Shown in pieces: positions 29,486-62,498 of a DNA stretch of 64,000 nt (positions within the stretch are counted from its first letter, which is position 1; the number at the start of each line of letters is the position of its first letter). The stretch covers positions 68,924-132,923 of the forward strand of contig JAVEXP010000001.1 of the NCBI GenBank assembly GCA_034003985.1. The letters are read 5' to 3'. Both the position numbers and the translations under genes were made by a program. Below the pieces are notes generated by a model. It was not told the origin of the DNA. It was given only the letters and a program-made list of their open reading frames with translations, and made no database searches. The stretch is from Patescibacteria group bacterium. GTDB lineage: Bacteria > Patescibacteriota > Patescibacteriia > Buchananbacterales > UBA6539.

Positions 29486-30354
29486 ACGCTTTCTTGTCTT
29501 TGATCCGGGATGCTGGCGGTGATGAGCGAACCCGGATCTGTGTTGGGCTGGATCCTGAAATCGCGCGGCTTCCCGTCTGTGTCAGAGGGTCTAACCCAGC
29601 GGAACGAGTGATGTCGTTTTCGACTGATGTGGCCGCTGCTACAGCGCAGTTTGCTTTGGCCTTTCAAACCAAGCTGGCCATCTGGCAAGCGGTTGGCGCT
29701 GAAGAACAACTGGCAAAACTGATTGCTTATATTCAAGGGCAATTGGGTCGGCCGGTGATCTTGGACGCCAACTATGGCGATGTTCCGGCAATATCCGCGG
29801 AATATGCGAAAGCCGCTTTCGATCGTTTCGACGCTAGCGCGGTAACGCTGAATGTCTATCACGGTCGAGACAGCCTGGTTCCCTGGCTGAAGCGCGGTCC
29901 GGAAAAAGGACTGTTCGTTGTCTGCCACACCAGCAACGACATGGCCAGTGATTTTCAGGACCTGCAGGTCAACCCGGTTGGTAATGGCGGCCATTTGCCA
30001 TTGTTCGTCCATTTGGCTCATCAGGTGCTGCAGCTGCGGTCGGACGACAGCGCAACTATCGGATTCGTGATGGACGAAGCATTCCCGATGCATATTACCA
30101 GCCTTCGGCCGCAAGCTGGTGACTGGTGGTGGCAGCCATCAGAGATTCCGTTGCTGATCGGGTATTCGTCGGGGCAGCTTGAGGAGTTGGTAGGGCGGGC
30201 TTCGTTCTATCCTTTCCTGCTGAGCTGTTCGCGAGGGATAATCCACGCTTCGGAGGAGTCGGATTTTGCCCAGGCCGCCGCTAATGCCGCCGAGGGCTTG
30301 CGTAACCGAGTCAACATGGTGTTGGAAAACAAGGAGGGATGTCGTGTCGGCTAA
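29482..30354 (+). CDS. Orotidine-5'-phosphate decarboxylase-like (type 2 / HUMPS family) with a non-canonical active-site motif
   Basis: 'ICVGLDP', 'VTLNVYHG' and 'VCHTSNDM' match type-2 ODCase blocks. The DxKxxD block reads 'ILDANYGDV', so the catalytic Lys is replaced by Asn and the Arg by Tyr. The ATG overlaps the upstream stop and has SD 'GGAGGTGA'. Confidence 0.7.
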   Translation: MNAFLSLIRDAGGDERTRICVGLDPEIARLPVCVRGSNPAERVMSFSTDVAAATAQFALAFQTKLAIWQAVGAEEQLAKLIAYIQGQLGRPVILDANYGDVPAISAEYAKAAFDRFDASAVTLNVYHGRDSLVPWLKRGPEKGLFVVCHTSNDMASDFQDLQVNPVGNGGHLPLFVHLAHQVLQLRSDDSATIGFVMDEAFPMHITSLRPQAGDWWWQPSEIPLLIGYSSGQLEELVGRASFYPFLLSCSRGIIHASEESDFAQAAANAAEGLRNRVNMVLENKEGCRVG

Positions 30355-30490
30355 CTCACAATCGTACCCCGGTCGACCCAGGAAATGCAGTAATGTTCCA
30401 GGGTCGAAGGCCTGTGATAAGTGCCGGAAGAACAACGGAACTTATTGCCAGTACTGCACCGCTTGGCAGAATGCCAGCGGCAAGAAGTAG
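30344..30490 (+). CDS. 48-aa zinc-ribbon-like Cys-rich small protein (GTG start)
   Basis: SD 'AAGGAGGG' lies 5 nt upstream of the GTG. The product is 'VSANSQSYPGRPRKCSNVPGSKACDKCRKNNGTYCQYCTAWQNASGKK', with CxxC...CxxC spacing. GC3 is about 64%, matching the island. Confidence 0.4.
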   Translation: MSANSQSYPGRPRKCSNVPGSKACDKCRKNNGTYCQYCTAWQNASGKK

Positions 30491-30507
30491 TACTACTACA
30501 TATAACT

Positions 30508-30556
30508 TTGACCCCGCCTTTGGATGAAATGAGGGTGACCACTGGCGGGTCTTTTT
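30508..30556 (+). terminator. Putative terminator after the small Cys-rich ORF
   Basis: Stem 'gacccgcc/ggcgggtc' with a roughly 25-nt loop is followed by TTTTTT. It precedes a short AT-rich, promoter-like spacer. Confidence 0.35.
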
Positions 30557-30667
30557 TATTTGATTTATTGACTTTTTGTCGATTTGTTAGTAAGTTTAGG
30601 TACTCGGTTTATAAATCGAGTGACAGTGCTAAACAGGAATCTACCGCAACGGAAAGGGAGATCAGCC

Positions 30668-31774
30668 ATGCCAACATTGACAGGTGGAACATTGTTACTA
30701 GAAGAGGAAGGTCTGGCCGGAATCAAACCCGGTTTGATCAAGCATGCACTGTTTGACAGTGACGGAACCATCTCGCTCTTGCGGGCGAAATGGGATCTGG
30801 TAATGGCGCCAATGATGTGCCGGGCGATTTGCGGTGAGGGAAACACAGTGCCCCAGGAAGTGGCCGAGATCGTTTCCGACACCATTGAGGAAACAACGGG
30901 CATTCGGACAATTCGCCAGATGGAGCTGCTGGTCAATCTGGTCATGCAGTTCGGGCTGGTGCCTGACGATCAGGTCAAGGATGCTTGGGGGTACAAGGCC
31001 GACTATTTGGCGGCATTGATGGTGCCGGTCAACGAGCGGATTGCGCGCGTTCAGTCCGGCGCTTGCAAGCCGGAGCATTTTATGGTTCGGGGGATTGGGA
31101 CTCTCCTGGAACTGTTTTGCCAAGTCGGAATCGACATGCGGGTGTTCTCCGGCACCGATGAACCCGATGTGCGACGCGAACTCGAAGTGCTGGGAGTCCT
31201 TCACCATTTCACCTCAGTTCACGGGGCAGCACCGGCGCTGAAGCCCGGAGAACCTGAAATCGACAAGGAACAGGTTCTCCAATGCTTGATGGAAGAGCAG
31301 GGGCTCAAAGGCGAGGAAGTTTTGATCATCGGCGACGGTCCGGTGGAAATCAAGCTTGCGCGGCAGTTCGGCTGTTGGGCCATTGGCGTTTGTTCGAAAG
31401 AGGGCGATGATCGCAAAGGCTATGATCAGGCCAAGGTCGCGCGTCTGACCAAGGCCGGGGCCCATGTGCTTATCCCCGATTTCAGCGACGCTTGCCGCTT
31501 GGTACGCGAACTGTTCAAAGTCGCGTCAATCATCGAGCCGGCCAATTTTCCGCTGCCGGAAGATGAAGACATGCTGTCGTTGCTTGGCTTTATCCGCAAC
31601 CAGGTCAGCAACGGCGAATTCAAGCCTGGCGACTTGTTGCCCACCCCGGAAGAATTTGTCGAGCGCTTTTCCCAGATCGTCGGGCATCGGGTTTATCCTG
31701 AAACCGTGGTCGGACTGTACAACGCGTCCGAACATATCAAGCGGCGTGACTATGACGGCTATGTGATTGTCTAA
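30668..31774 (+). CDS. HAD superfamily hydrolase (subfamily IA-like phosphatase) with a roughly 150-aa C-terminal extension
   Basis: The ATG has SD 'AAGGGAG'. 'ALFDSDGTIS' is motif I (DxDGT). 'SGTD' is motif II. 'IIGDGPVE' is motif IV. Confidence 0.7.
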   Translation: MPTLTGGTLLLEEEGLAGIKPGLIKHALFDSDGTISLLRAKWDLVMAPMMCRAICGEGNTVPQEVAEIVSDTIEETTGIRTIRQMELLVNLVMQFGLVPDDQVKDAWGYKADYLAALMVPVNERIARVQSGACKPEHFMVRGIGTLLELFCQVGIDMRVFSGTDEPDVRRELEVLGVLHHFTSVHGAAPALKPGEPEIDKEQVLQCLMEEQGLKGEEVLIIGDGPVEIKLARQFGCWAIGVCSKEGDDRKGYDQAKVARLTKAGAHVLIPDFSDACRLVRELFKVASIIEPANFPLPEDEDMLSLLGFIRNQVSNGEFKPGDLLPTPEEFVERFSQIVGHRVYPETVVGLYNASEHIKRRDYDGYVIV

Positions 31775-31786
31775 GGGGGGGGCAAA

Positions 31787-31912
31787 ATGAAGCCGCTTGT
31801 TCAGCGTTCAGCGGAATTGCCGCTGACTATTCAATTTATATTCATCGCAGTAACGGTGGTTTTGTTGGCAGTAATCTTGCTGCCGGCAATTGTCCGATCG
31901 TTGGGTGACTGA
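31787..31912 (+). CDS. 41-aa hydrophobic peptide (possible small membrane protein)
   Basis: 'MKPLVQRSAELPLTIQFIFIAVTVVLLAVILLPAIVRSLGD'. It is preceded by a G8 homopolymer and has GC-rich codon usage. Confidence 0.3.
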   Translation: MKPLVQRSAELPLTIQFIFIAVTVVLLAVILLPAIVRSLGD

Positions 31913-32035
31913 TAGTAATTCAACGAACAAACCGTGACAACCCGTTATTTGCTGGGGCCTTGACCGTGCGTCGAGGCTCGTTTTTTTACATTTTGGAAAT
32001 TTTTGTTTGGGTTTAATCTGTGTTAAAATAAGTTT

Positions 32036-53260: not shown

Positions 53261-54085
53261 ATGTTTTTTGATGCCTTAAAAAAAGAGCTAGAAATTCGCA
53301 ATTTAAGCGAAAAGACAGCCAGGGCTTATCTGTATTATAATGGTGATTTGCTTAAATTCTGCAAAAAAACACCCGAATCAATTAAGGAATTGGATATAAA
53401 AGAGTATGTTAGACATTTGGTTGTGGAAAGGCGGGCTTCGGCTTCGACTGTCAGACTGGCTTTGAATGCTTTAAAATTTTATTACTCAAATATTAAGAAA
53501 CGCCGGTTTGATTATCTTTCTAAGGCGGTGTTGCCTAAAAAACCAAAAAGGTTGCCGGTGGTTTTATCTAAATCCGAAGTGGCAAAATTGTTAAGTTGCG
53601 TTGTCAACAATAAACATCGGTTAATTTTGTCGCTGATGTATTCTTCCGGCTTGAGAGTTAGTGAAGTTGTAACTTTAAGAACTCAGGACTTTGATTTGGA
53701 AAATAAAATTTTGTGGGTTAGACAGGGTAAGGGCAGAAAGGATCGACGAACAATCATTGCTGAAAAGTTAATTGATGATTTAAATCAATTGATCAGCTGT
53801 AAAGAAGTTGGTGATTATATTTTTCCCAGCCAGGATGGGATTGGACATCTTACCGCCCGAACAGCAGAAAAGATTTTTCAATCCGCACTGGTTAAATCAG
53901 GAGTCAAGAAGGAAGCGACATGCCATAGTTTGCGCCATAGTTTTGCCACTCATCTTTTGGAAGATGGGACTGATATTCGTTATATTCAAAGTTTGTTGGG
54001 ACATCAAAGTTTAACAACTACTCAGATCTATACCAAAGTGAGCAGTGGGCATTTAAGTCAGATCAAATCACCATTTGATTGTTAG
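53261..54085 (+). CDS. Tyrosine site-specific recombinase (XerC/XerD-like integrase)
   Basis: It has an N-terminal SAM-like domain. The C-terminal 'HSLRHSFATHLLEDGTDIRYIQSLLGHQSLTTTQIYTKV' contains the catalytic R-H-R-Y residues. Confidence 0.85.
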   Translation: MFFDALKKELEIRNLSEKTARAYLYYNGDLLKFCKKTPESIKELDIKEYVRHLVVERRASASTVRLALNALKFYYSNIKKRRFDYLSKAVLPKKPKRLPVVLSKSEVAKLLSCVVNNKHRLILSLMYSSGLRVSEVVTLRTQDFDLENKILWVRQGKGRKDRRTIIAEKLIDDLNQLISCKEVGDYIFPSQDGIGHLTARTAEKIFQSALVKSGVKKEATCHSLRHSFATHLLEDGTDIRYIQSLLGHQSLTTTQIYTKVSSGHLSQIKSPFDC

Positions 54086-54185: not shown

Positions 54186-54299
54186 GTGTCATTCTGAGGC
54201 CGCAGGCCGAAGAATCTCTAGACAGAATTGATGTCCTTTACTTTGAGATCCTTCGCTTCGCTCAGGATGACAAGAAGGTGGCTCAGGATGACAATGGGG
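54186..54299. repeat. MITE-like palindromic repeat copy 1 (A+B modules) with an 18-bp tandem 'ggatgacaaRaaggtg' tail
   Basis: 'tgtcattctgaggccgcaggccgaagaatctct...gagatccttcgcttcgctcaggatgaca'. The termini 'tgtcattctgag'/'ctcaggatgaca' are inverted. The internal arms 'cgaagaatctc' and 'gagatccttcg' are complementary. Confidence 0.6.
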
Positions 54300-54323
54300 T
54301 AGGATTATAGTAATACAATATAT

Positions 54324-54620
54324 ATGCCCGGTAGAATATATTATGTTTATTTAATGGTAAACAAGACTAATACGGTAGTTTATACAGGGGTGACAAATAA
54401 CCTGAGACGACGAGTTTTTGAACATAAGAATAAGTTAGTTAAGGGGTTTACCAGTAAGTATAATGTGAATAAATTGGTTTATTTTGAAGAAACTGAAGAT
54501 GTGTCCACGGCAATTTTTCGTGAAAAACAGATTAAGGGTTGGTTAAGAATAAAGAAAATTAAGTTAATTCAAACACGAAATCAGGGGTTTAAGGATTTAA
54601 GTGAATATTGGTATGATTAA
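54324..54620 (+). CDS. Stand-alone GIY-YIG nuclease domain protein (UPF0213-like)
   Basis: 'YYVYLMVNKTNTVVYTGVTNNLRRRVFEH' carries the GIY..YIG and R..E motifs. Confidence 0.75.
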   Translation: MPGRIYYVYLMVNKTNTVVYTGVTNNLRRRVFEHKNKLVKGFTSKYNVNKLVYFEETEDVSTAIFREKQIKGWLRIKKIKLIQTRNQGFKDLSEYWYD

Positions 54621-54631
54621 TTTTTTACTTT

Positions 54632-54737
54632 GTCATTCTGAGGCCGCAGGCCGAAGAATCTCTGGACAGAATTGTTTGAGATCCTTCGCTTCACTCAGGA
54701 TGACAAAAGAAGATTTCCACGATGACAAAAGAGAGTG
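54632..54737. repeat. MITE-like palindromic repeat copy 2
   Basis: It is near-identical to copy 1 in modules A (54632-54674) and B (54678-54737). Confidence 0.6.
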
Positions 54738-54835
54738 TTTGGTATAACAAAAGAGATGACTTTGGTTCGCAACAATCTGTCTGCTGGTAATCGGTAATGA
54801 CAGATTAGCACCGCGGCAATAAAATACTATTGTTA

Positions 54836-54864
54836 TTGACATAAATTTTGGCTAGGTATACAAT
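54836..54864 (+). promoter_or_regulatory. Consensus sigma70-type promoter (TTGACA, 17 nt, TACAAT)
   Basis: TTGACA at 54836-54841, the spacer 'taaattttggctaggta' and TACAAT at 54859-54864. No ORF follows. Confidence 0.55.
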
Positions 54865-54870
54865 GTGAAT

Positions 54871-55076
54871 ACCTAAGGTGATTGGTAAGGCTACCAACTT
54901 TACAGCGAGATCCTTCGCTTCGCTCAGGATGACAAGAGCGGCTAAACTTTTTAGGCCAATAAAATAAATTGAGTGTCCCGATAAAATCGGGAAAGTTGGG
55001 TGGAACCGCCCCGATAATTTACCTGCCTCGGCAGGTCGGAGTCCCAAGCAGAAATTTTCTGGTTGGTTTTTTGTTT
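54871..55076 (+). ncRNA. Candidate small RNA (about 205 nt) of unknown family, with a 3' intrinsic terminator
   Basis: It has no ORF longer than 12 codons. It carries perfect hairpins 'tcccgat-aaa-atcggga' and 'acctgcc-tc-ggcaggt'. The terminal hairpin is 'ccaagcagaa-attt-ttctggttgg' followed by TTTTTTGTTT. It embeds one B-module repeat at 54907-54936. Confidence 0.4.
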
Positions 55077-55093
55077 GGATATCTTTCGCTTCG

Positions 55094-55150
55094 AGATCCT
55101 TCGCTTCGCTCAGACAAAAGAAGATTTCCACGATGACAAGAAGGTGGCCC
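55094..55150. repeat. MITE-like B-module half copy
   Basis: 'gagatccttcgcttcgctcagacaaaagaagatttccacgatgacaagaaggtggcccaggat'. Confidence 0.5.
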
Positions 55151-55253
55151 AGGATTATAAAGAGAGTGTTTAGGGTAATGGGTGGGGTAATTGCGACAGG
55201 ATTTAGAATGGCATTAGGGTGTTTATTTTGATTATCAACCCAATATCATGTTG

Positions 55254-55396
55254 TGTCATTCTGAGGCCGTAGGCCGAAGAATCTCTGGACAGAATTGTTT
55301 GAGATCCTTCGCTTCGCTCAGGATGACAAAAGAAGATTTCCACGATGACAAGAAGGTGTTCGGGATGACAAGAAGGTGTTCGGGATGACAGGAAGT
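55254..55396. repeat. MITE-like palindromic repeat copy 3 with 2.5 tandem copies of a 20-bp unit 'gatgacaagaaggtgttcgg'
   Basis: It has the A module (55254-55296) and the B module (55301-55340). The tandem units at 55345-55396 run up to the GNAT gene. Confidence 0.6.
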
Positions 55397-55414
55397 GATT
55401 ATCTAAGTATCAAT

Positions 55415-55981
55415 ATGTCTAAAAAAATTATTTTAAAAGGAAAAAAAGTAATTTTACGCCCATTGTCTTTGACTGACGCGCCAAGGTTTTGCCAGTGGCT
55501 AAAAGACCGCGAAGTTACCAAGTTTTTGAGCATTCATGATCAGCCGCCGCCGAGCTTGCAGGAAGAACGCGATTGGATCAGGCGAACCAAAACTCATAAA
55601 CAAAATGTGGTGTTGGCAATTGATACCATTGACGGCCAGCATATCGGGGCAATCAGTCTGCGTTTTTCGCTGGGTGAAGACAAGGTGGCAAATTACGGCA
55701 TCAGTATCGGTGATCAGCGTTATTGGGGACAGGGTTATGGAACGGAAGCGGGCGAATTGATGATTGAATATGGCTTTAAGAAATTAAGATTACACCGGAT
55801 CCATTTGGAGTGTATTGCCTATAATATTCGGGGAATAAAATCTTATCAAAAATTGGGATTCAAAATCGAAGGCAGATTGCGAGATCAGATTTGGCGCGAC
55901 GGGTATTGGCACGATCAAATTCATATGGGAATTTTGGAGCAAGAATACTTCAATAAATCAAAATCTAAGAAAAAGGAGTGA
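55415..55981 (+). CDS. GNAT family N-acetyltransferase (RimJ/RimL-like)
   Basis: 'ISIGDQRYWGQGYGTEAGELMIEYGFKKL' is the acetyl-CoA binding motif A. The ATG at 55415 is preferred, because the upstream part of the ORF is repeat sequence. Confidence 0.8.
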   Translation: MSKKIILKGKKVILRPLSLTDAPRFCQWLKDREVTKFLSIHDQPPPSLQEERDWIRRTKTHKQNVVLAIDTIDGQHIGAISLRFSLGEDKVANYGISIGDQRYWGQGYGTEAGELMIEYGFKKLRLHRIHLECIAYNIRGIKSYQKLGFKIEGRLRDQIWRDGYWHDQIHMGILEQEYFNKSKSKKKE

Positions 55982-55998
55982 TAAATAATTAAAAATAT

Positions 55999-57777
55999 AT
56001 GGATGACAAATTATTAAGAATCAGGCATTCGGCTTCACATGTTTTAGCCCAAGCGGTCTTGGAACTTTATCCGGATGCCAAGCTGGCAATTGGGCCGGCA
56101 ATTGAAGAAGGTTTTTATTATGATTTTGATTTGGGCGGCAAAACTTTTTCCGACCAGGATTTGGCTGAATTGGAAAAAAAGATGCGCCAGATCATCAAAC
56201 AAAATCAGAAATTTGAAAAATCCGATATGGATGCTGATGAGGCGGTCAAGTATATCAAATCCAAACACCAGCCATATAAATTGGAAATGGCTCAGGATTT
56301 ACAAAAAGGCGGAGAAAAGAAATTGGGATTTTATACTATGGTGGCGCAAGACGGCAAGCCCAAGTTTGTTGATCTTTGCGCTGGACCCCATGTCAAGAAT
56401 ACCAAAGAGATTGGGGCGGTTAAATTATTGAAGCTAGCCGGTGCTTATTGGCGGGGAGACGAAAAAAATAAAATGTTGCAACGGATTTATGGGACAGCAT
56501 TTGGTTCTCAGGCTGAGCTGGATGAATATTTAAAGATGGTGGCCGAGGCAGAGAAGCGGGATCATCGTAAGATTGGCAAGGAACTAAAGATTTTTTCGTT
56601 TCACGATATGGTTGGTTCGGGCTTACCATTGTGGCTGCCCAATGGCGGCGTTATGATTGAAGAAATTGAAAAATTGGCCAAAGAAATGGAAGAACAAGCC
56701 GGTTACAGCCGGGTTAAAACTCCTCATCTGGCTAAAGAAGAAATGTATCAGACTTCCGGGCATTTGCCTTATTATGAAGAGAGTATGTTTCCGCCAATGG
56801 TGGTAGACGATGACGGGCGCAAAACCAAGTATTATCTTAAGGCGATGAATTGTCCTCATCATCATTTGATTTTTGCGTCGGAAATGCGCAGTTACCGTGA
56901 TTTGCCAATTCGTTTAGCCGAATATGGTACCTGCTACCGTTATGAAAAAAGCGGTGAATTGTTTGGATTGATGAGGGTTCGTTCCATGCAAATGAACGAT
57001 GCTCATATTTATTGTACCGAAGATCAATTTGAGTCGGAATTTTTGGCAGTGATTGATTTGTATCTAAAGTATTTTGAGATATTTAATATTGAGAAATATG
57101 TGATGCGTTTCAGCACTCATAGCAAAGAAGGGCTTGGCAAGAAATATATTGATAATGAAAAATTGTGGCTGAAGACCGAAGAAATGATCAGGAAACTATT
57201 GACCAAAAACAAGGTGCCATTTGTGGAAGTGACAAATGAAGCGGCTTTTTATGGACCAAAAATTGATGTTCAGATTTGGAGTGCCATTGGCCGGGAATTT
57301 ACCCTGGCTACCAACCAAGTTGATTTTGCAGTTCCCGAGAGATTTGGTTTGGTTTATGTCGACAACGAGGGCAAAGAGAAAACCCCGATTTGCATTCACC
57401 GGGCGCCGCTTTCTACTCATGAAAGATTAATCGGATTTTTGATTGAACATTATGCCGGTGCTTTCCCAACTTGGTTAGCGCCAGTTCAAGTTCAGATTGT
57501 TTCCGTTGGTCAAGATTTTATTGAGTTTTGCCAGCAATTGGCCACTGAATTGGTCAGTCAAGGGATTAGGGTAAAGATTGATGACGCCAACGAAACCGTT
57601 GGTAATAAGATCAGAAAAGCCGAAAAACAAAAAATTCCCTATATGTTGGTGATTGGTGAAAAGGAAGTCAAAGGTAAGGAGTTAAGTGTTCGACTGCGTG
57701 GTCAGAAAGAAATGGTTGGGATGAAGAAAGAAAAATTTGTTGAAAAGGTTGTGGCAGAAATAAAAAATAGGAAGTAA
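55999..57777 (+). CDS. thrS: Threonine--tRNA ligase (lacks the N-terminal TGS/editing extension)
   Basis: It has the class II core 'CPHHHLIF' zinc site, 'FGLMRVRSMQMNDAHIY', and a C-terminal anticodon-binding domain. Confidence 0.95.
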   Translation: MDDKLLRIRHSASHVLAQAVLELYPDAKLAIGPAIEEGFYYDFDLGGKTFSDQDLAELEKKMRQIIKQNQKFEKSDMDADEAVKYIKSKHQPYKLEMAQDLQKGGEKKLGFYTMVAQDGKPKFVDLCAGPHVKNTKEIGAVKLLKLAGAYWRGDEKNKMLQRIYGTAFGSQAELDEYLKMVAEAEKRDHRKIGKELKIFSFHDMVGSGLPLWLPNGGVMIEEIEKLAKEMEEQAGYSRVKTPHLAKEEMYQTSGHLPYYEESMFPPMVVDDDGRKTKYYLKAMNCPHHHLIFASEMRSYRDLPIRLAEYGTCYRYEKSGELFGLMRVRSMQMNDAHIYCTEDQFESEFLAVIDLYLKYFEIFNIEKYVMRFSTHSKEGLGKKYIDNEKLWLKTEEMIRKLLTKNKVPFVEVTNEAAFYGPKIDVQIWSAIGREFTLATNQVDFAVPERFGLVYVDNEGKEKTPICIHRAPLSTHERLIGFLIEHYAGAFPTWLAPVQVQIVSVGQDFIEFCQQLATELVSQGIRVKIDDANETVGNKIRKAEKQKIPYMLVIGEKEVKGKELSVRLRGQKEMVGMKKEKFVEKVVAEIKNRK

Positions 57778-57781
57778 AAAT

Positions 57782-58555
57782 ATGGCAGCTGAAAACCCCG
57801 AATATATTCCAGTCGAGGCGCGGGAGCAGTTGACTAATGTTGAATATGGAGTTTTGACTCCCGATGATACAGCTAGCATAGCTGAATACTATCAATTCGA
57901 GATTAATCAAGGTTTTTCCCAGGTTCCCGAACAGTCAAGTTTAGAGGGAATGATTGCCTGGCGCCAAAAGCAGATTCAAGAAGGAAAGCTGCAGGTAGCT
58001 GTTGCCAGGCAGGAAGGTAAAATCGTTGGTACTGCGGTGATGGCTTTGGAAAATGAAATAATGGGCAAAAAATTACAGCCTAATGAAGCCTGGGCGGCTG
58101 GGACGGTGGTTGATAAAAGGTTGTCTGGCCAGGGTGTTGGGCGTGGTCTGGTAGAACAAGAAGATGAGATTGCCAGACAGGCCGGCAAGGAAGCAATCTT
58201 AACAACGATTACCCAGGACAATTTACCCAGCATGAGACTTTATTTGAAATCCGGTTATAGTTTGGAAGCTTTGGATGAACGGGAAGATGAAATTTGTTAT
58301 CGCTATCGTAAGGATTTGAAAGAGTCGGGTCGCAGTGACCAAGGCTGGGTAAAAGCAGTTGAACAAGGAGAGCTAAAACCATTGGACGCTGAAATTGATG
58401 AACAAACCCCAAATCAAATTTTGATTTCGCCGCAAGATTCGCTAAAAGTTAAAGCGGCGTTAGAAGCCGGTTATCGGGGAGTACAATTAGTTTCTCCTCG
58501 CGATTTTGAGGAACAAGAAGTCTTGGATCAGGCTTATTTGGTTTTTACTAAATAG
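57782..58555 (+). CDS. GNAT family acetyltransferase domain protein
   Basis: 'RLSGQGVGRGLVEQ' is motif A-like. The start is 5 nt after the thrS stop. Confidence 0.55.
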   Translation: MAAENPEYIPVEAREQLTNVEYGVLTPDDTASIAEYYQFEINQGFSQVPEQSSLEGMIAWRQKQIQEGKLQVAVARQEGKIVGTAVMALENEIMGKKLQPNEAWAAGTVVDKRLSGQGVGRGLVEQEDEIARQAGKEAILTTITQDNLPSMRLYLKSGYSLEALDEREDEICYRYRKDLKESGRSDQGWVKAVEQGELKPLDAEIDEQTPNQILISPQDSLKVKAALEAGYRGVQLVSPRDFEEQEVLDQAYLVFTK

Positions 58556-58571
58556 TTTTGAAAAACTAAAC

Positions 58572-58615
58572 TAAAAAAATCAGCCCTGCCTCAACTCTTG
58601 CGAGCGAGGCAGGGC
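58572..58615. terminator. Terminator hairpin, strongest for the minus-strand gene
   Basis: A 10-bp perfect stem 'gccctgcctc/gaggcagggc'. The A-run on the plus strand gives a T-run for the minus-strand transcript. Confidence 0.55.
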
Positions 58616-58631
58616 CTTGCGTTTGGGCCGG

Positions 58632-60194
58632 TTACAGGCCCAGAATAATCGGGGATGAGAACGAGGGCAGGGTGCTACCGTCGTCCATCGTCACCCGCCA
58701 GCCGCTATTGAATTGCGGTTGGCCAAAGAGCGTGGGGTCGAAAATACCCAGCGGACCGCTGCGATGCAGGTCGGTCCAGATGAAGTAAGCCTGGGAAGCT
58801 GCTTCATCGTAGGTGGCCGGCAAGGGGGCGGGGAAAGACTGGTCCCCGACCAGGTTGGTGACGATCGCGGCGTCGGCCTGGCCGGGTGGAATATTCAAAT
58901 CGGCCATCAGCCAGAGCCGTTCGCCTTGATCAATCTGACCGTCAGGAATCACTTGCGGCTCCAAATCAACGATGACCAAGCCGTCGGCATCAAGCTGGCC
59001 GGTGCCAACCACACCCTGAAATTCGCGCCAGACGCGAAAGTTGCTCGCGGTCACATGCTGCGTCTGGACCTTGAAGGTCAGGCGGCAGAGTGCCAAATCG
59101 TCCCAGCCGCCGTTGGTGACGGCGAGCGGGAAGAGGATTTGGTTGTTGATATGGCCAACAACCAGGCGCGCGCCATGCAGCGGCAAGATGCTGACTATGG
59201 GCACACTCTGAAAAACAGTGAACTGCCCTGAGGTTGCCTGGCCAATCCCACCTAAGAGCTGGTTCGAATCCAGCCCGCGTCCGACAATCTCTTCTCCGGG
59301 CACGAAAACCGTGAAACCTTGGCCGGATTCGGCGGGGCCAGTCTCGCAATCGCCCGTCTCCACCTTGATCGTGAAGTGCTCGGGTACTCCGGGCTGGAGA
59401 ACCAGCGGTTCGGCAAAGTTGACTACCGCGCTGCCAGCCGTCAAAGGTATTGGCTCTTCCCAAGAGTCGTCGGTGCTGGGGACAGCCGAACCCAGGAAGT
59501 CGGCGCCGTGATAGACACTGACTTGCCCGATTTGATCCGGCCCGCCATCGTTGACTTTACTGAAGTAGATTGGCAAGCCGCTGATTTCCACTGGTTCGCG
59601 TTCGGCATCAAGGGCGACTTCCAGGATGCTGATTCCGGAAGTGTTGGCGGGTAAAAGCCCGGATCGGGGAGAGTTGCCGCCGGTACCGACATTAATTTCA
59701 CCGCCGGCGACCACTTGAATGATCGGTCCAAACTGAATCAGCTCCGGCGATTCCTGACTCATTCCGGCGACCATTGAGGTGGACGCCTGAATAGCGCATT
59801 CCATTGCCGAGGTGGCAATATCGCCGATCAGTTGGGCAGTCATTTGCTGGTTGGCACTGAAGGCCAAGGGCTGGGCCAGCAGGAAGCGGATCTGGGCGAC
59901 GCTTTGGTCGGGGTCAAACAGTCCCGCGTTGGGATCGTTGACGGTTTGTGCCAGCTCGCCGTCAATCAGCAAGCCGACATTGGCCAGAACATTGACCCCG
60001 GCGCCATTGACATTGACTCCGAAAGTCAGTTGGGAAAGGGTTGTCGGGCTTTTGTCGCCGTTGAGCTGCAGGTCCAGCAGGACAATGCCTTGCGAGCCGG
60101 CAATCACGGTGAAACCCTGGGTGGCGGTAATGGTCACGGTCACACAACCGGCCAATACTACACTCATCAGAACCAGAATCAAAGACTTACGCAT
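58632..60194 (-). CDS. Large secreted lipoprotein of unknown function (GC-rich gene, about 60% GC)
   Basis: The ATG at 60194 has SD 'AAGGAGA'. 'MRKSLILVLMSVVLAGCVTV' is the lipobox. It is Gly/Val/Thr-rich and beta-rich in composition. Confidence 0.5.
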   Translation of the reverse strand: MRKSLILVLMSVVLAGCVTVTITATQGFTVIAGSQGIVLLDLQLNGDKSPTTLSQLTFGVNVNGAGVNVLANVGLLIDGELAQTVNDPNAGLFDPDQSVAQIRFLLAQPLAFSANQQMTAQLIGDIATSAMECAIQASTSMVAGMSQESPELIQFGPIIQVVAGGEINVGTGGNSPRSGLLPANTSGISILEVALDAEREPVEISGLPIYFSKVNDGGPDQIGQVSVYHGADFLGSAVPSTDDSWEEPIPLTAGSAVVNFAEPLVLQPGVPEHFTIKVETGDCETGPAESGQGFTVFVPGEEIVGRGLDSNQLLGGIGQATSGQFTVFQSVPIVSILPLHGARLVVGHINNQILFPLAVTNGGWDDLALCRLTFKVQTQHVTASNFRVWREFQGVVGTGQLDADGLVIVDLEPQVIPDGQIDQGERLWLMADLNIPPGQADAAIVTNLVGDQSFPAPLPATYDEAASQAYFIWTDLHRSGPLGIFDPTLFGQPQFNSGWRVTMDDGSTLPSFSSPIILGL

Positions 60195-60362
60195 GCCACT
60201 TCTCCTTCTTGTTGGCATATTCCATTGTAGGGAACACAAAATTGTACTCATTTTGAGCACCTCAAAACATACCATAAAATATGATTTTTGTCAATAATTA
60301 TGCTTGAATTAACCCGGTTTTTTTGCTATTTTTAAATAGTTGAAACTAAATAATTAGCTAAA

Positions 60363-62498
60363 ATGAAATACAAAATTATTGTTTTTGGTTGCGGTTTTAA
60401 CCAGATTGATGCTGAACGGGCCGCGGCTGTTTTGGAAAAAATTGGCTACCAGTCTACGGAGAAAGATTTTGAGACTGACTTGTTTTTGGTGCTGGCTTGC
60501 TCCGTTCGTCAGTCGGCCATTGACCGGGTGATGGGGCTGGAACACAGATTTAATCAGATTAAAAAGACCCGGCCGATAATTACTTTATTGTCCGGTTGTG
60601 TATTGCCAACTGACAAATCAAAAATGAGCAAGTTTTTTGATATTGTTTTTCCGATTAATGATTTAGTTAAACTGCCGGTAATGTTGGCTCAAAAATCTTT
60701 GGATTTACCGACTGATTATTTGAAAGTTCGGCCAAGCTATCGTTCAACTTTTCAGGCCTCGGTGCCGGTCATTAATGGCTGTAATAATTTTTGTACTTAT
60801 TGCGCCGTGCCTTATGTTCGGGGAAGGGAAAAATCCAGAAAGGCCAAAGATGTTTTGGCCGAATGCCAAGCGTTGGTGGCCCAAGGATATAAATATATTG
60901 AATTGCTCGGTCAAAATGTTAACAGCTATCAAGACGGCAGGATTAATTTTCCGAAATTATTAAAGCAAGTGGATAATATTCCCGGGGATTATTGGCTGAG
61001 CTTTGCTTCCTGTCATCCCAAAGACATGTCGGATGAATTAATCGCAGTGATGGGCAAGGCTAAACATTTGATTCCCTATTTAAATTTGCCCCTGCAGGCC
61101 GGGGATAATGAAGTGATTCAGCGGATGAATCGTAATTATATGGTTAGTCATTATAAAAATTTGATTCGTAAAATCAGAAAAGCCGTACCGGGGATTGCTG
61201 TTTCGACTGATATGATCGTTGGCTTTCCCGGCGAGACTAGGACCCAGTTCAACAATACTGCTAAGTTGATGAAAGAAGTTGAATTTGACATGGCTTTTTT
61301 GGCCCGTTATTCGCCAAGGCCGGGGACAGCGGCAGCCAAGCTGGTTGATGATGTCAAACCGGCTGAAAAGAAACGGCGCGAAGAAGCGTTAAATAAGATT
61401 TTAAAACAAACGGCCTTGAAGAAAAACCAAGTTTTTGTCGGACAAAATATTGAAGCATTAGTAACCGAATATCGCCATGGTTTTTGCTTTGGCCGGACTA
61501 AACATTTCAAGAATATTAAGTTTAAAAGCGAAGTTGATTTAACCGGCCAACTAGTGCTGGTAAAAGTTACCAGCTGTTATTCCTGGGGATTGCGTGGCGA
61601 GCTGCCTAAGGTGGTGGTAATTTTGGGCACGACTTCGGCGGGCAAGACCAGCTTGGCCGTTAAGCTAGCCCGTAAGTTTAAGGGCGAGATTATTTCGGCT
61701 GATTCGCGTCAGGTCTATACCGGCATGGATATTGGTACGGGTAAAGATTTGGAAGAATATGGTAAAATTCCTCATCATTTGATTGACGCTGAATTGCCAA
61801 AGAACCAGTATACTTTAGCCCAATGGCAGCAGGGGGCCAACGCGGCAGTTAAAGATGTTTTGCAGCGCCAGAAGCTGCCGATTGTTTGTGGCGGCACAGG
61901 TCTTTATATTTCGGCGCTGGTTGACGGTTATCAGCTAGCCCAAGCCAGTGAAGATAAACAGCTTAGAAACCGTTTGGCTAGGCTGACTTTGAAACAATTG
62001 CTGGCCAGGCTGAAAAAGGTTGATCCCAAAACCTACGAAGTCATTGATCGGCAGAATCGGCGCCGAGTTCAGCGGGCGCTGGAAATTTATTATCAAACCG
62101 GAATTACCAAGTCGCAACAGGCTAAACCCCAAAAACCGCCTTATCAATTTTTGAAGCTTGGCATTACTTTTCCTAAAGAAGTGCTGAAGGCGCGGATTGC
62201 CAAAAGATTGAAGCATCGTTTGGAAAAAGAAGGGATGATTGAAGAAATTAAAAAATTGCACCAGCAAGGAGTGAGCTATCAGCGCTTGGAGGAGTTTGGC
62301 TTGGAATATCGCTGGGTCGGCCGTTACTTAAGAAAGCAATTGAGTTATGAAGAGATGTACAATAATTTGGAAAAAGCGATTAATGATTTTGCCAAGCGCC
62401 AAATGACTTGGTTTAAACGAGATCAAGAGATTGAGTGGGTGAGTGATTATCAGCAAGCTGAGAGGAAAATTAGAAAATTTTTGAGTGATAAAGGATGA
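60363..62498 (+). CDS. miaB-miaA: Bifunctional fusion of a MiaB-like radical SAM methylthiotransferase (N-terminal) and tRNA dimethylallyltransferase MiaA (C-terminal)
   Basis: The MTTase domain has three Cys (GC, 'LACSVR', 'SGCV'). The radical SAM motif is 'CNNFCTYCAVPYVRG'. The TRAM domain runs to 'LVLVKVTSC'. From about residue 418, 'VVVILGTTSAGKTSLAVKLA...ISADSRQVYTGMDIGTGK...PIVCGGTGLYISAL' carries the MiaA P-loop and motifs. Confidence 0.8.
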   Translation: MKYKIIVFGCGFNQIDAERAAAVLEKIGYQSTEKDFETDLFLVLACSVRQSAIDRVMGLEHRFNQIKKTRPIITLLSGCVLPTDKSKMSKFFDIVFPINDLVKLPVMLAQKSLDLPTDYLKVRPSYRSTFQASVPVINGCNNFCTYCAVPYVRGREKSRKAKDVLAECQALVAQGYKYIELLGQNVNSYQDGRINFPKLLKQVDNIPGDYWLSFASCHPKDMSDELIAVMGKAKHLIPYLNLPLQAGDNEVIQRMNRNYMVSHYKNLIRKIRKAVPGIAVSTDMIVGFPGETRTQFNNTAKLMKEVEFDMAFLARYSPRPGTAAAKLVDDVKPAEKKRREEALNKILKQTALKKNQVFVGQNIEALVTEYRHGFCFGRTKHFKNIKFKSEVDLTGQLVLVKVTSCYSWGLRGELPKVVVILGTTSAGKTSLAVKLARKFKGEIISADSRQVYTGMDIGTGKDLEEYGKIPHHLIDAELPKNQYTLAQWQQGANAAVKDVLQRQKLPIVCGGTGLYISALVDGYQLAQASEDKQLRNRLARLTLKQLLARLKKVDPKTYEVIDRQNRRRVQRALEIYYQTGITKSQQAKPQKPPYQFLKLGITFPKEVLKARIAKRLKHRLEKEGMIEEIKKLHQQGVSYQRLEEFGLEYRWVGRYLRKQLSYEEMYNNLEKAINDFAKRQMTWFKRDQEIEWVSDYQQAERKIRKFLSDKG

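Follow-up and report, generated by a model that had tools for sequence, protein, structure and literature searches.

T-box riboswitches that act on transcription are said to need a long Stem I with an elbow-binding motif for fast tRNA capture, and variants with a truncated Stem I are said to be translational, specific for ileS and dependent on Stem II (PMC7583486; bioRxiv 10.1101/2023.02.28.530422). In the T-boxes studied, important or essential roles are described for the kink-turn (K-turn), for Stem II and for the distal double T-loop; the last is described as required for transcriptional T-boxes, and Stem II as essential if Stem I is truncated (PMC7583486). TBDB confined its class II search to Actinobacteria and to class I matches that have a truncated Stem I (PMC7778990). 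Here we analyze a 64-kb stretch of DNA from a Patescibacteria group bacterium (contig JAVEXP010000001.1), referred to as the window, and an RNA leader within it that starts at a promoter at 54836-54864 and precedes a GNAT acetyltransferase gene and thrS, the gene of threonine--tRNA ligase (ThrRS). All features described for the leader and these two genes lie on the + strand. Judging from its sequence, the leader is very probably a threonine-specific T-box riboswitch that controls GNAT-thrS by transcription attenuation.

The discriminator half of the leader is a textbook T-box. The purine-string element GAGUG (RRRNG) at 54971-54975 is followed by Stem III (UCCCGAU-AAA-AUCGGGA, 54976-54992), whose inner hairpin CCCGAU/AUCGGG occupies 54977-54991, and by AAG up to 54995; the purine-string/Stem III motif is defined in PMC7583486 and PMC7778990. 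The antiterminator at 54996-55047 contains helix A1, the T-box bulge, helix A2 and an extra hairpin. In A1, UUGGG (54996-55000) pairs with CCCAA (55043-55047) at 5/5 positions. The 7-nt bulge UGGAACC (55001-55007) displays UGGN at its 5′ edge. In A2, GCCCCGA (55008-55014) faces UCGGAGU (55036-55042) with six of seven pairs and one C-A mismatch, and the helix opens with the G-U pair usual in the T-box family. The extra hairpin CCUGC/GCAGG (55022-55035) locates in the A2 loop. The T-box sequence UUGGG-UGGAACC-GCC at 54996-55010 is identical in all homologues; in the window, UUGGGUGGAACCGCC / AAAGUUGGGUGGAACCGCC agrees with the family consensus AGGGUGGNACCGCG, which is the most conserved 14 nt of the T-box family (PMC11297988).

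Downstream, an intrinsic terminator at 55044-55073 forms a stem of CCAAGCAGAA / UUCUGGUUGG (55044-55066), followed by UUUUUUG. An earlier note on this DNA, made from the letters alone, had described three perfect hairpins and a 10-bp terminator stem. The hairpins at 54977-54991, 55022-55035 and 54885-54903 are real, and the terminator stem has 9/10 pairs with one G-G mismatch. An automated terminator scan of the window did not report this terminator. CCAA of the A1 3′ strand serves again in the terminator, as part of its 5′ strand (55044-55053), and the antiterminator and the terminator are therefore mutually exclusive. With ViennaRNA, the terminator conformer reaches -33.3 kcal/mol versus -27.7 kcal/mol for the antiterminator. 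The terminator is thus predicted to be favored by 5.6 kcal/mol, an 'off by default' arrangement as is usual for T-boxes. The string GGCAGGUCGGAGUCCCAAGCAG, in which a weak and unconvincing likeness to helix 8 of the signal recognition particle (SRP) RNA had been seen, turns out to consist of the A2 and A1 3′ strands plus the terminator 5′ strand.

A search of Rfam, which the earlier note had suggested as a check, gives no match at the gathering score anywhere in the 64-kb window. In E-value mode over 54600-55450, the sole significant match is the T-box family RF00230, with 28.3 bits and E=3e-4. The homologous leaders also match RF00230 significantly, at 29-49 bits and all below the gathering score; the E-values range from 7e-8 to 7e-5 for those at 37-49 bits.

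These homologous leaders come from thrS loci fetched from genomes and metagenomes, with the closest ThrRS relatives obtained via the protein database and contig look-ups; a metagenome scan with ThrRS gave no relative above 63% identity. The linkage of the leader to thrS is seen in seven lineages. In the closest locus (L001, ThrRS 82% identical), a compact leader of ~170 nt, within 1600-1815, is followed by an inserted open reading frame (ORF), a GNAT gene and thrS. In L161/L162 (71%), L163-L165 (70%), L166 (69%) and the 5′-truncated L170 (70%), the leader lies directly upstream of thrS. The L171 leader (65%) is more divergent, and L077/L153 (56%), from a metagenome-assembled genome (MAG) labelled Saccharibacteria, has the ACC hairpin and the T-box core without the closing-helix and junction architecture. 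In every member, a terminator hairpin with a U-run overlaps the 3′ strands of A1 and A2. The terminator is 100-170 nt ahead of the start codon in the homologues and 340 nt in the window. The Falkowbacteria-like thrS genes (L167-L169 and L172, ThrRS 67-68%) have no T-box in their upstream spacers of only 30-126 nt; this sister group has therefore either lost the leader or never acquired it.

In the decoding half, a compact layout stands in place of the ~90-nt Stem I of a canonical T-box. The closing helix P1 is formed by CCUAAGGU (54872-54879) and ACUUUUUAGG (54946-54955). Within it, the junction strand GAUUG (54880-54884) leads to the specifier hairpin P2 (54885-54903), a variable hairpin region P3 follows at 54904-54941, and the strand CUAA (54942-54945) returns to P1. 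P1, the specifier hairpin and the variable hairpin thus meet in a three-way junction, with GAUUG and CUAA as the junction strands. GAUUG is invariant in 5/6 full-length homologues, and CUAA in the window, L001, L161, L163, L166 and L170. The GAUUG/CUAA junction may resemble the UAA/GAN internal-loop motif. The P3 region of the homologues consists of one or two plain hairpins of 19-38 nt without sequence conservation (in L001, a plain 6-bp hairpin).

P2 has a 6-bp stem, GUAAGG/CUUUAC, and a 7-nt loop, CUACCAA, which displays the threonine codon ACC (54893-54895) followed by A. Across the lineages, the stem changes to GUAAAG/CUUUAC (L001), AAAUGG/CCAUUU (L161), AGGCGG/CCGCUU (L163), GAACGU/ACGUUC (L166), GCAAG/CUUGC (L171) and CGGCGU/GCGCCG (L077). 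The loop varies among CUACCAA, UCACCAA, CCACCAA and CUAACCA. Upstream of thrS in seven lineages, ACC and the following A are kept in this loop, which is apical, not internal, and ACC-A is the only conserved threonine codon in the leader. We dropped a minimum-free-energy fold in which UUGGU pairs with ACCAA and buries the codon, because the GUAAGG/CUUUAC hairpin covaries in all lineages, whereas UUGGU/ACCAA is found only in the window and L001.

With 6 bp and a 7-nt loop, P2 is sized like an anticodon stem-loop, and its position upstream of thrS would also suit an operator in the style of E. coli thrS, in which ThrRS binds the 7-nt-loop hairpin and represses its own operon. ThrRS recognizes an anticodon-like sequence in the E. 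coli operator, and ACC is the complement of such a sequence. The P2 loop, however, shows the codon ACC and not the anticodon-like GGU, CGU or UGU. Meanwhile, the leader contains a complete T-box discriminator, UGGA bulge and competing terminator included, which needs no protein. We therefore regard an operator as highly improbable.

Covariation among homologous loci had also been proposed earlier as a check. Based on an ungapped alignment of seven unedited sequences, RNAalifold predicts P2 with compensatory changes in 6/6 pairs. All 5 counted pairs of Stem III covary, A2 covaries among the homologues, and P1 shows compensatory variants (AAGGU/ACUUU, AAAGU/GCUUU, AAGC/GCUU, UAGGC/GCCUA). For the whole structure, we used a hand-trimmed alignment of five leaders, because MAFFT on full leaders misaligned the 3′ strands of P1 and A1; P3 and the variable loops were removed, and the trimming was guided by the structure. 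Over P1, P2, Stem III, A1 and A2, 97.6% of the cells are paired, and both sides change in 16/25 pairs. Not one of 500 shuffles matches this result, and slid controls reach at most 61%. Because the structure guided the trimming, the whole-structure counts are biased towards it, and the P2 result is free of this bias. A covariance model made without the window sequence finds a single match in the 64-kb window, which is this site (22 bits), and the same model finds no further members in 51 loci.

The promoter of the leader is of the sigma-70 type (TTGACA-17-TACAAT, 54836-54864), identified by its hexamer matches and the 17-nt spacer. It outranks every other promoter-like site in 50-60 kb and is one of only four sites with at least 11/12 matches on both strands of the window, in line with the earlier note, which had ranked it among the best. 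Transcription probably starts at ~54871. TTGACA, followed at 17 nt by a -10-like hexamer, stands at the same position in L001, L161, L163 and L166, and also in L002, a Peregrinibacteria locus described below; it was not found before the L171 leader. The RNA of ~200 nt downstream of the promoter has a folding energy z of -2.5 versus shuffles. A discrete unit from promoter to terminator that encodes a structured noncoding RNA is supported. On the other hand, this transcript is not an orphan. The GNAT gene (55415-55981; Pfam PF13302, 97.8 bits) is the first gene after the leader, and thrS (55999-57777; TIGR00418, 651 bits versus a cutoff of 384) follows after a gap of 17 nt on the same strand, with no second promoter-like site on the + strand between leader and thrS. 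MDX9892895.1, from a MAG of a Patescibacteria group bacterium, matches the window ThrRS at 100% identity. The claim that no ORF of at least 13 codons lies downstream does not hold either, as a TTG-start ORF of 55 codons (54969-55136) begins within the transcript. A Pfam search with this ORF gives no match, and from the sequence, its counterpart in L001 is the T-box core read in another frame.

A discrete promoter and a terminator that yield a ~200-nt RNA, next to repeat copies and a recombinase/GIY-YIG region, could also point to a small RNA that acts in trans, independently of thrS, and just happens to be located upstream of it. Such an RNA would be 6S-like or SRP-like, antisense, or a regulator of the mobile region. 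No Rfam family but T-box matches, though, and for 6S, SRP-like or housekeeping RNAs there is no match at the gathering score or at E up to 10; ARAGORN finds no transfer-messenger RNA (tmRNA). Nothing points to an antisense or a recombination-directionality role. The element travels with thrS and not with mobile elements, and the L161, L163 and L166 leaders have no repeat elements, recombinase or GIY-YIG gene beside them. A terminated T-box leader already explains the discrete RNA. We thus consider a trans-acting RNA very unlikely. Of the roles listed before, a cis-regulatory one stands, with the GNAT-thrS operon and not the neighboring mobile region as its target.

The canonical Stem I features are missing from the leader. 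We looked for a K-turn and found no 3-nt bulge with tandem G-A; GAUUG/CUAA adjoins the fully paired P1. A K-turn in UGA...AA was ruled out as well, as it has no bulge. A double T-loop (AGAGA plus UGNRA) on a long Stem I is not found, and there is no such stem. The Stem II S-turn, the F-box (CCGUUA-like) and the IIA/B pseudoknot are not recognizable, and the Rfam alignment deletes the Stem II and pseudoknot regions or aligns them at low posterior probability.

The window copy also carries mobile sequence. As seen before, a module of a miniature inverted-repeat transposable element (MITE) is embedded in the transcript: these 32 nt at 54907-54938, held by P3, are 94-100% identical to copies at 54678 and 55301, which are parts of larger repeats at 54631-54750 and 55254-55400. 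The ~340 nt from the terminator to the first gene are MITE- or repeat-derived. L001 has neither the MITE module nor the extra hairpin in the A2 loop. Both additions are probably tolerated, because P3 and the A2 loop vary in length among the homologues, and a MITE module in the variable hairpin is probably harmless.

The loss of the K-turn, the double T-loop and Stem II, the MITE module within the leader, the extra A2 hairpin and the long MITE-filled spacer ahead of the first gene could together be read as decay. The leader would then be a non-functional T-box relic that lost its long Stem I and received mobile pieces, with thrS constitutive or under another promoter. The closeness to a thrS group without any leader (L167-L169, 67% identity) agrees with this. 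However, the same reduced architecture persists across a ThrRS divergence of 18-35%. P1, P2, Stem III and A2 vary by compensatory changes, whereas no variation is seen in the loop ACCA, in CUAA or in the T-box core, and GAUUG is kept in 5/6; this pattern indicates purifying selection rather than decay. Meanwhile, the terminators are intact in all members, the TTGACA-17 promoter is kept in L001, L161, L163 and L166, and the insertions are confined to regions that vary among the homologues. A relic is therefore unlikely, albeit less so than the operator or the trans-acting RNA.

Several points weigh against a functional threonine T-box. The 28.3 bits lie far under the RF00230 gathering score of 93, and the leader has no K-turn, no distal double T-loop and no Stem II domain. 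The comparison covers only ~7 independent sequences, with a whole-structure alignment trimmed by hand. The window copy could be impaired by the MITE in P3, the extra A2 hairpin and the spacer. ARAGORN found no tRNA gene in the window, and a scan of 40 loci gave only tRNA-Val, Lys and Arg; with no tRNA-Thr gene among these, the anticodon GGU and the discriminator U73 are inferred only. The regulation in vivo is a prediction from the sequence.

We nevertheless favor a threonine-specific T-box, for which the following mechanism can be proposed. RNA polymerase would start at the strong promoter and transcribe the compact decoding module. The anticodon GGU of tRNA-Thr would pair with ACC, shown in the apical loop (7 nt) of P2. 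When this tRNA carries no amino acid, its 3′ end, presumably UCCA, would pair with the UGGA that opens the T-box bulge on its 5′ side, and stack on A1. This pairing may stabilize the antiterminator, with A1 and A2 stacked on Stem III, and allow read-through into GNAT-thrS. When tRNA-Thr is charged or absent, the more stable terminator would form, and transcription would stop at the U-run. Among T-box-like GUGGNACC sites in the fetched thrS loci, the bulge reads UGGA in 95/102, and the family consensus is UGGU; this predominance would fit a tRNA-Thr with discriminator U73.

By comparing the leader with canonical T-boxes (RF00230; Bacillus thrS/tyrS and the Chloroflexi loci L011, L016 and L023), we find common to both the RRRNG element, Stem III, AA, a 7-nt bulge that has UGGN on its 5′ edge, A1/A2 and a competing intrinsic terminator. 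Both also place a codon matching the regulated aminoacyl-tRNA synthetase, followed by a purine, and lie upstream of thrS. In contrast, the canonical specifier sits in an internal loop of a long Stem I, whereas that of the window sits in an apical 7-nt loop. Unlike canonical T-boxes, the window leader lacks the K-turn, the double T-loop of AG-bulge and distal loop, the S-turn of Stem II and the IIA/B pseudoknot, and has its decoding hairpin and a second, variable hairpin enclosed by a closing helix. In Chloroflexi, most thrS genes have GGGUGGAACCGCG 100-300 nt upstream, and by inspection, the leaders show Stem II and the IIA/B element next to a long Stem I, together with the specifier GAAA-ACC-A and the double T-loop motif. 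Three fetched thrS-locus T-boxes exceed the Rfam gathering score, and several Chloroflexi thrS loci with a T-box motif give no match at that score. We notice that tRNA-Val(GAC) lies immediately upstream of the thrS T-box in many Chloroflexi (L005, L011-L013, L016, L018, L021, L023 and others), with conserved gene order.

The ultrashort ('US', class II) ileS T-boxes of Actinobacteria (Sherwood et al. 2015, per PMC7583486 and bioRxiv 10.1101/2023.02.28.530422) share with the window element a short Stem I, a specifier in the terminal loop and the absence of an elbow-binding motif. A2 insertions, as in the window copy, are a further likeness; helix A2 often carries insertions in translational T-boxes (PMC7583486). 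The ultrashort class, however, is reported to concern only ileS and to act on translation via a Shine-Dalgarno sequestrator, whereas the window element precedes thrS and has a terminator with a U-run. For tRNA binding, the class depends on the K-turn, the S-turn of Stem II and the IIA/B pseudoknot, none of which is recognizable here. It is reported from Actinobacteria and the window element comes from Patescibacteria; our separation of the two follows secondary descriptions of the class.

The glycine (glyQS) T-boxes, like the window element, are transcriptional and have no Stem II or IIA/B pseudoknot, and their bulge is also UGGA, for a tRNA with discriminator U73. What sets them apart is their long Stem I, equipped with K-turn and elbow-stacking double T-loop, neither of which the window element has. 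Closer in phylogeny is the thrS T-box of L002 (Peregrinibacteria, RIFOXYA2_FULL_41_18; ThrRS 64%), which lies directly upstream of thrS. It belongs, as the window does, to the candidate phyla radiation (CPR), and it has the UGGAACC bulge and a TTGACA-17-TATAAT promoter. Unlike the window element, L002 retains a long Stem I, which bears AGAGA and UGAAA loops and holds the specifier ACU-A in one of its internal loops; L002 has no Stem II and looks like an intermediate form that has lost only this part. A thrS leader in a high-G+C record labelled Gammaproteobacteria (L008, 2735-2930; ThrRS 59%) shows a canonical T-box core and a terminator. Its distance of ~100 nt from a promoter-like site to the T-box is too short for a long Stem I.

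By its discriminator domain and its logic, then, the element belongs to the T-box family, and it fails the Stem I features of this family as well as most defining features of the actinobacterial ultrashort class, as described in reviews. A literature search found no paper that joins T-boxes with Patescibacteria or 'candidate phyla radiation'; an earlier description is possible, as the primary papers on T-box classes were outside the search. The decoding architecture is apparently undescribed, and to date only a few lineages of Patescibacteria (CPR) are seen to have it. We tentatively speculate, at somewhat less than even odds, that it represents a minimal transcriptional T-box class, in which the codon is displayed by an anticodon-loop-sized hairpin within a three-way junction, without elbow contact, K-turn, S-turn or pseudoknot.

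The leader is surrounded by a cluster of composite, MITE-like repeats at 54188-55400, with every copy on the + strand and no repeat pieces elsewhere in the window. Two copies of 98 nt each (54631-54728 and 55254-55351) are 98% identical, and partial copies locate at 54188-54300 and 55075-55180. The copies flank a GIY-YIG gene (54324-54620) and the T-box leader. Beside the cluster, a tyrosine recombinase of the archaeal XerA/integron-integrase type is encoded at 53261-54085 (229 bits versus an NCBIfam cutoff of 220). Three tandem 20-nt units (ATGACAAGAAGGTGTTCGGG-like) at 55345-55398 close the downstream repeat copy before the GNAT start at 55415, and generate a spurious upstream GTG start at 55376.

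Where the window has these MITE copies, L001 has an ORF of ~137 aa (1914-2325) inserted between the T-box terminator and GNAT. By eye only, this ORF has a GxxExxY / PD-(D/E)XK-type look. Selfish elements seem to land preferentially in the spacer between leader and gene. Short G+C-rich palindromic elements also occur in or after homologous leaders (L161 2915-2950; L170 60-90 and 170-235), for example CCTGCCTACGCTAAAGCTTCGGCAGGCAGG and, within Stem III of L170, ...GCGCTAAAGCTTCGG.... All of these are similar to the CCTGCCTCGGCAGG hairpin inserted in helix A2 of the window copy, a hairpin of which the window has no second example.

A second GNAT-family gene (57782-58555) starts 4 nt past thrS, which places thrS between two GNAT genes in one apparent operon. 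The upstream GNAT gene is common to the window and L001 and is not present in L161, L163 and L166; the proposed riboswitch would put an acetyltransferase under tRNA-Thr control. Further downstream, one 711-aa ORF (60363-62498) is a fusion of the methylthiotransferase MiaB (residues 2-414) and the dimethylallyltransferase MiaA (residues 417-695), the enzymes of two successive steps of the ms2i6A37 tRNA modification. In L161, L163 and L164, a separate MiaB-like gene follows thrS. Two islands of 54-55% G+C, at 58000-60300 and 30000-32000, stand out from the genome at ~42% G+C. In the former, a minus-strand ORF of 547 aa (58632-60275) is accompanied by numerous overlapping ORFs, and this island could be foreign DNA or an assembly chimera.

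Our analysis replaces an unexplained 'orphan' noncoding RNA with a concrete, testable regulator of an essential gene in Patescibacteria/CPR. If the proposed class is real, none of the accessory elements would be needed for co-transcriptional tRNA sensing, and CPR bacteria would hold the smallest natural T-box decoding module. A conserved, terminator-coupled, threonine-specific T-box without these elements would be a natural counter-example to current reviews, and the ~170-nt L001 leader would offer a compact scaffold for structural work and the engineering of tRNA sensors. Rfam-based annotation misses this class, and T-box regulation in reduced genomes is therefore probably under-counted.

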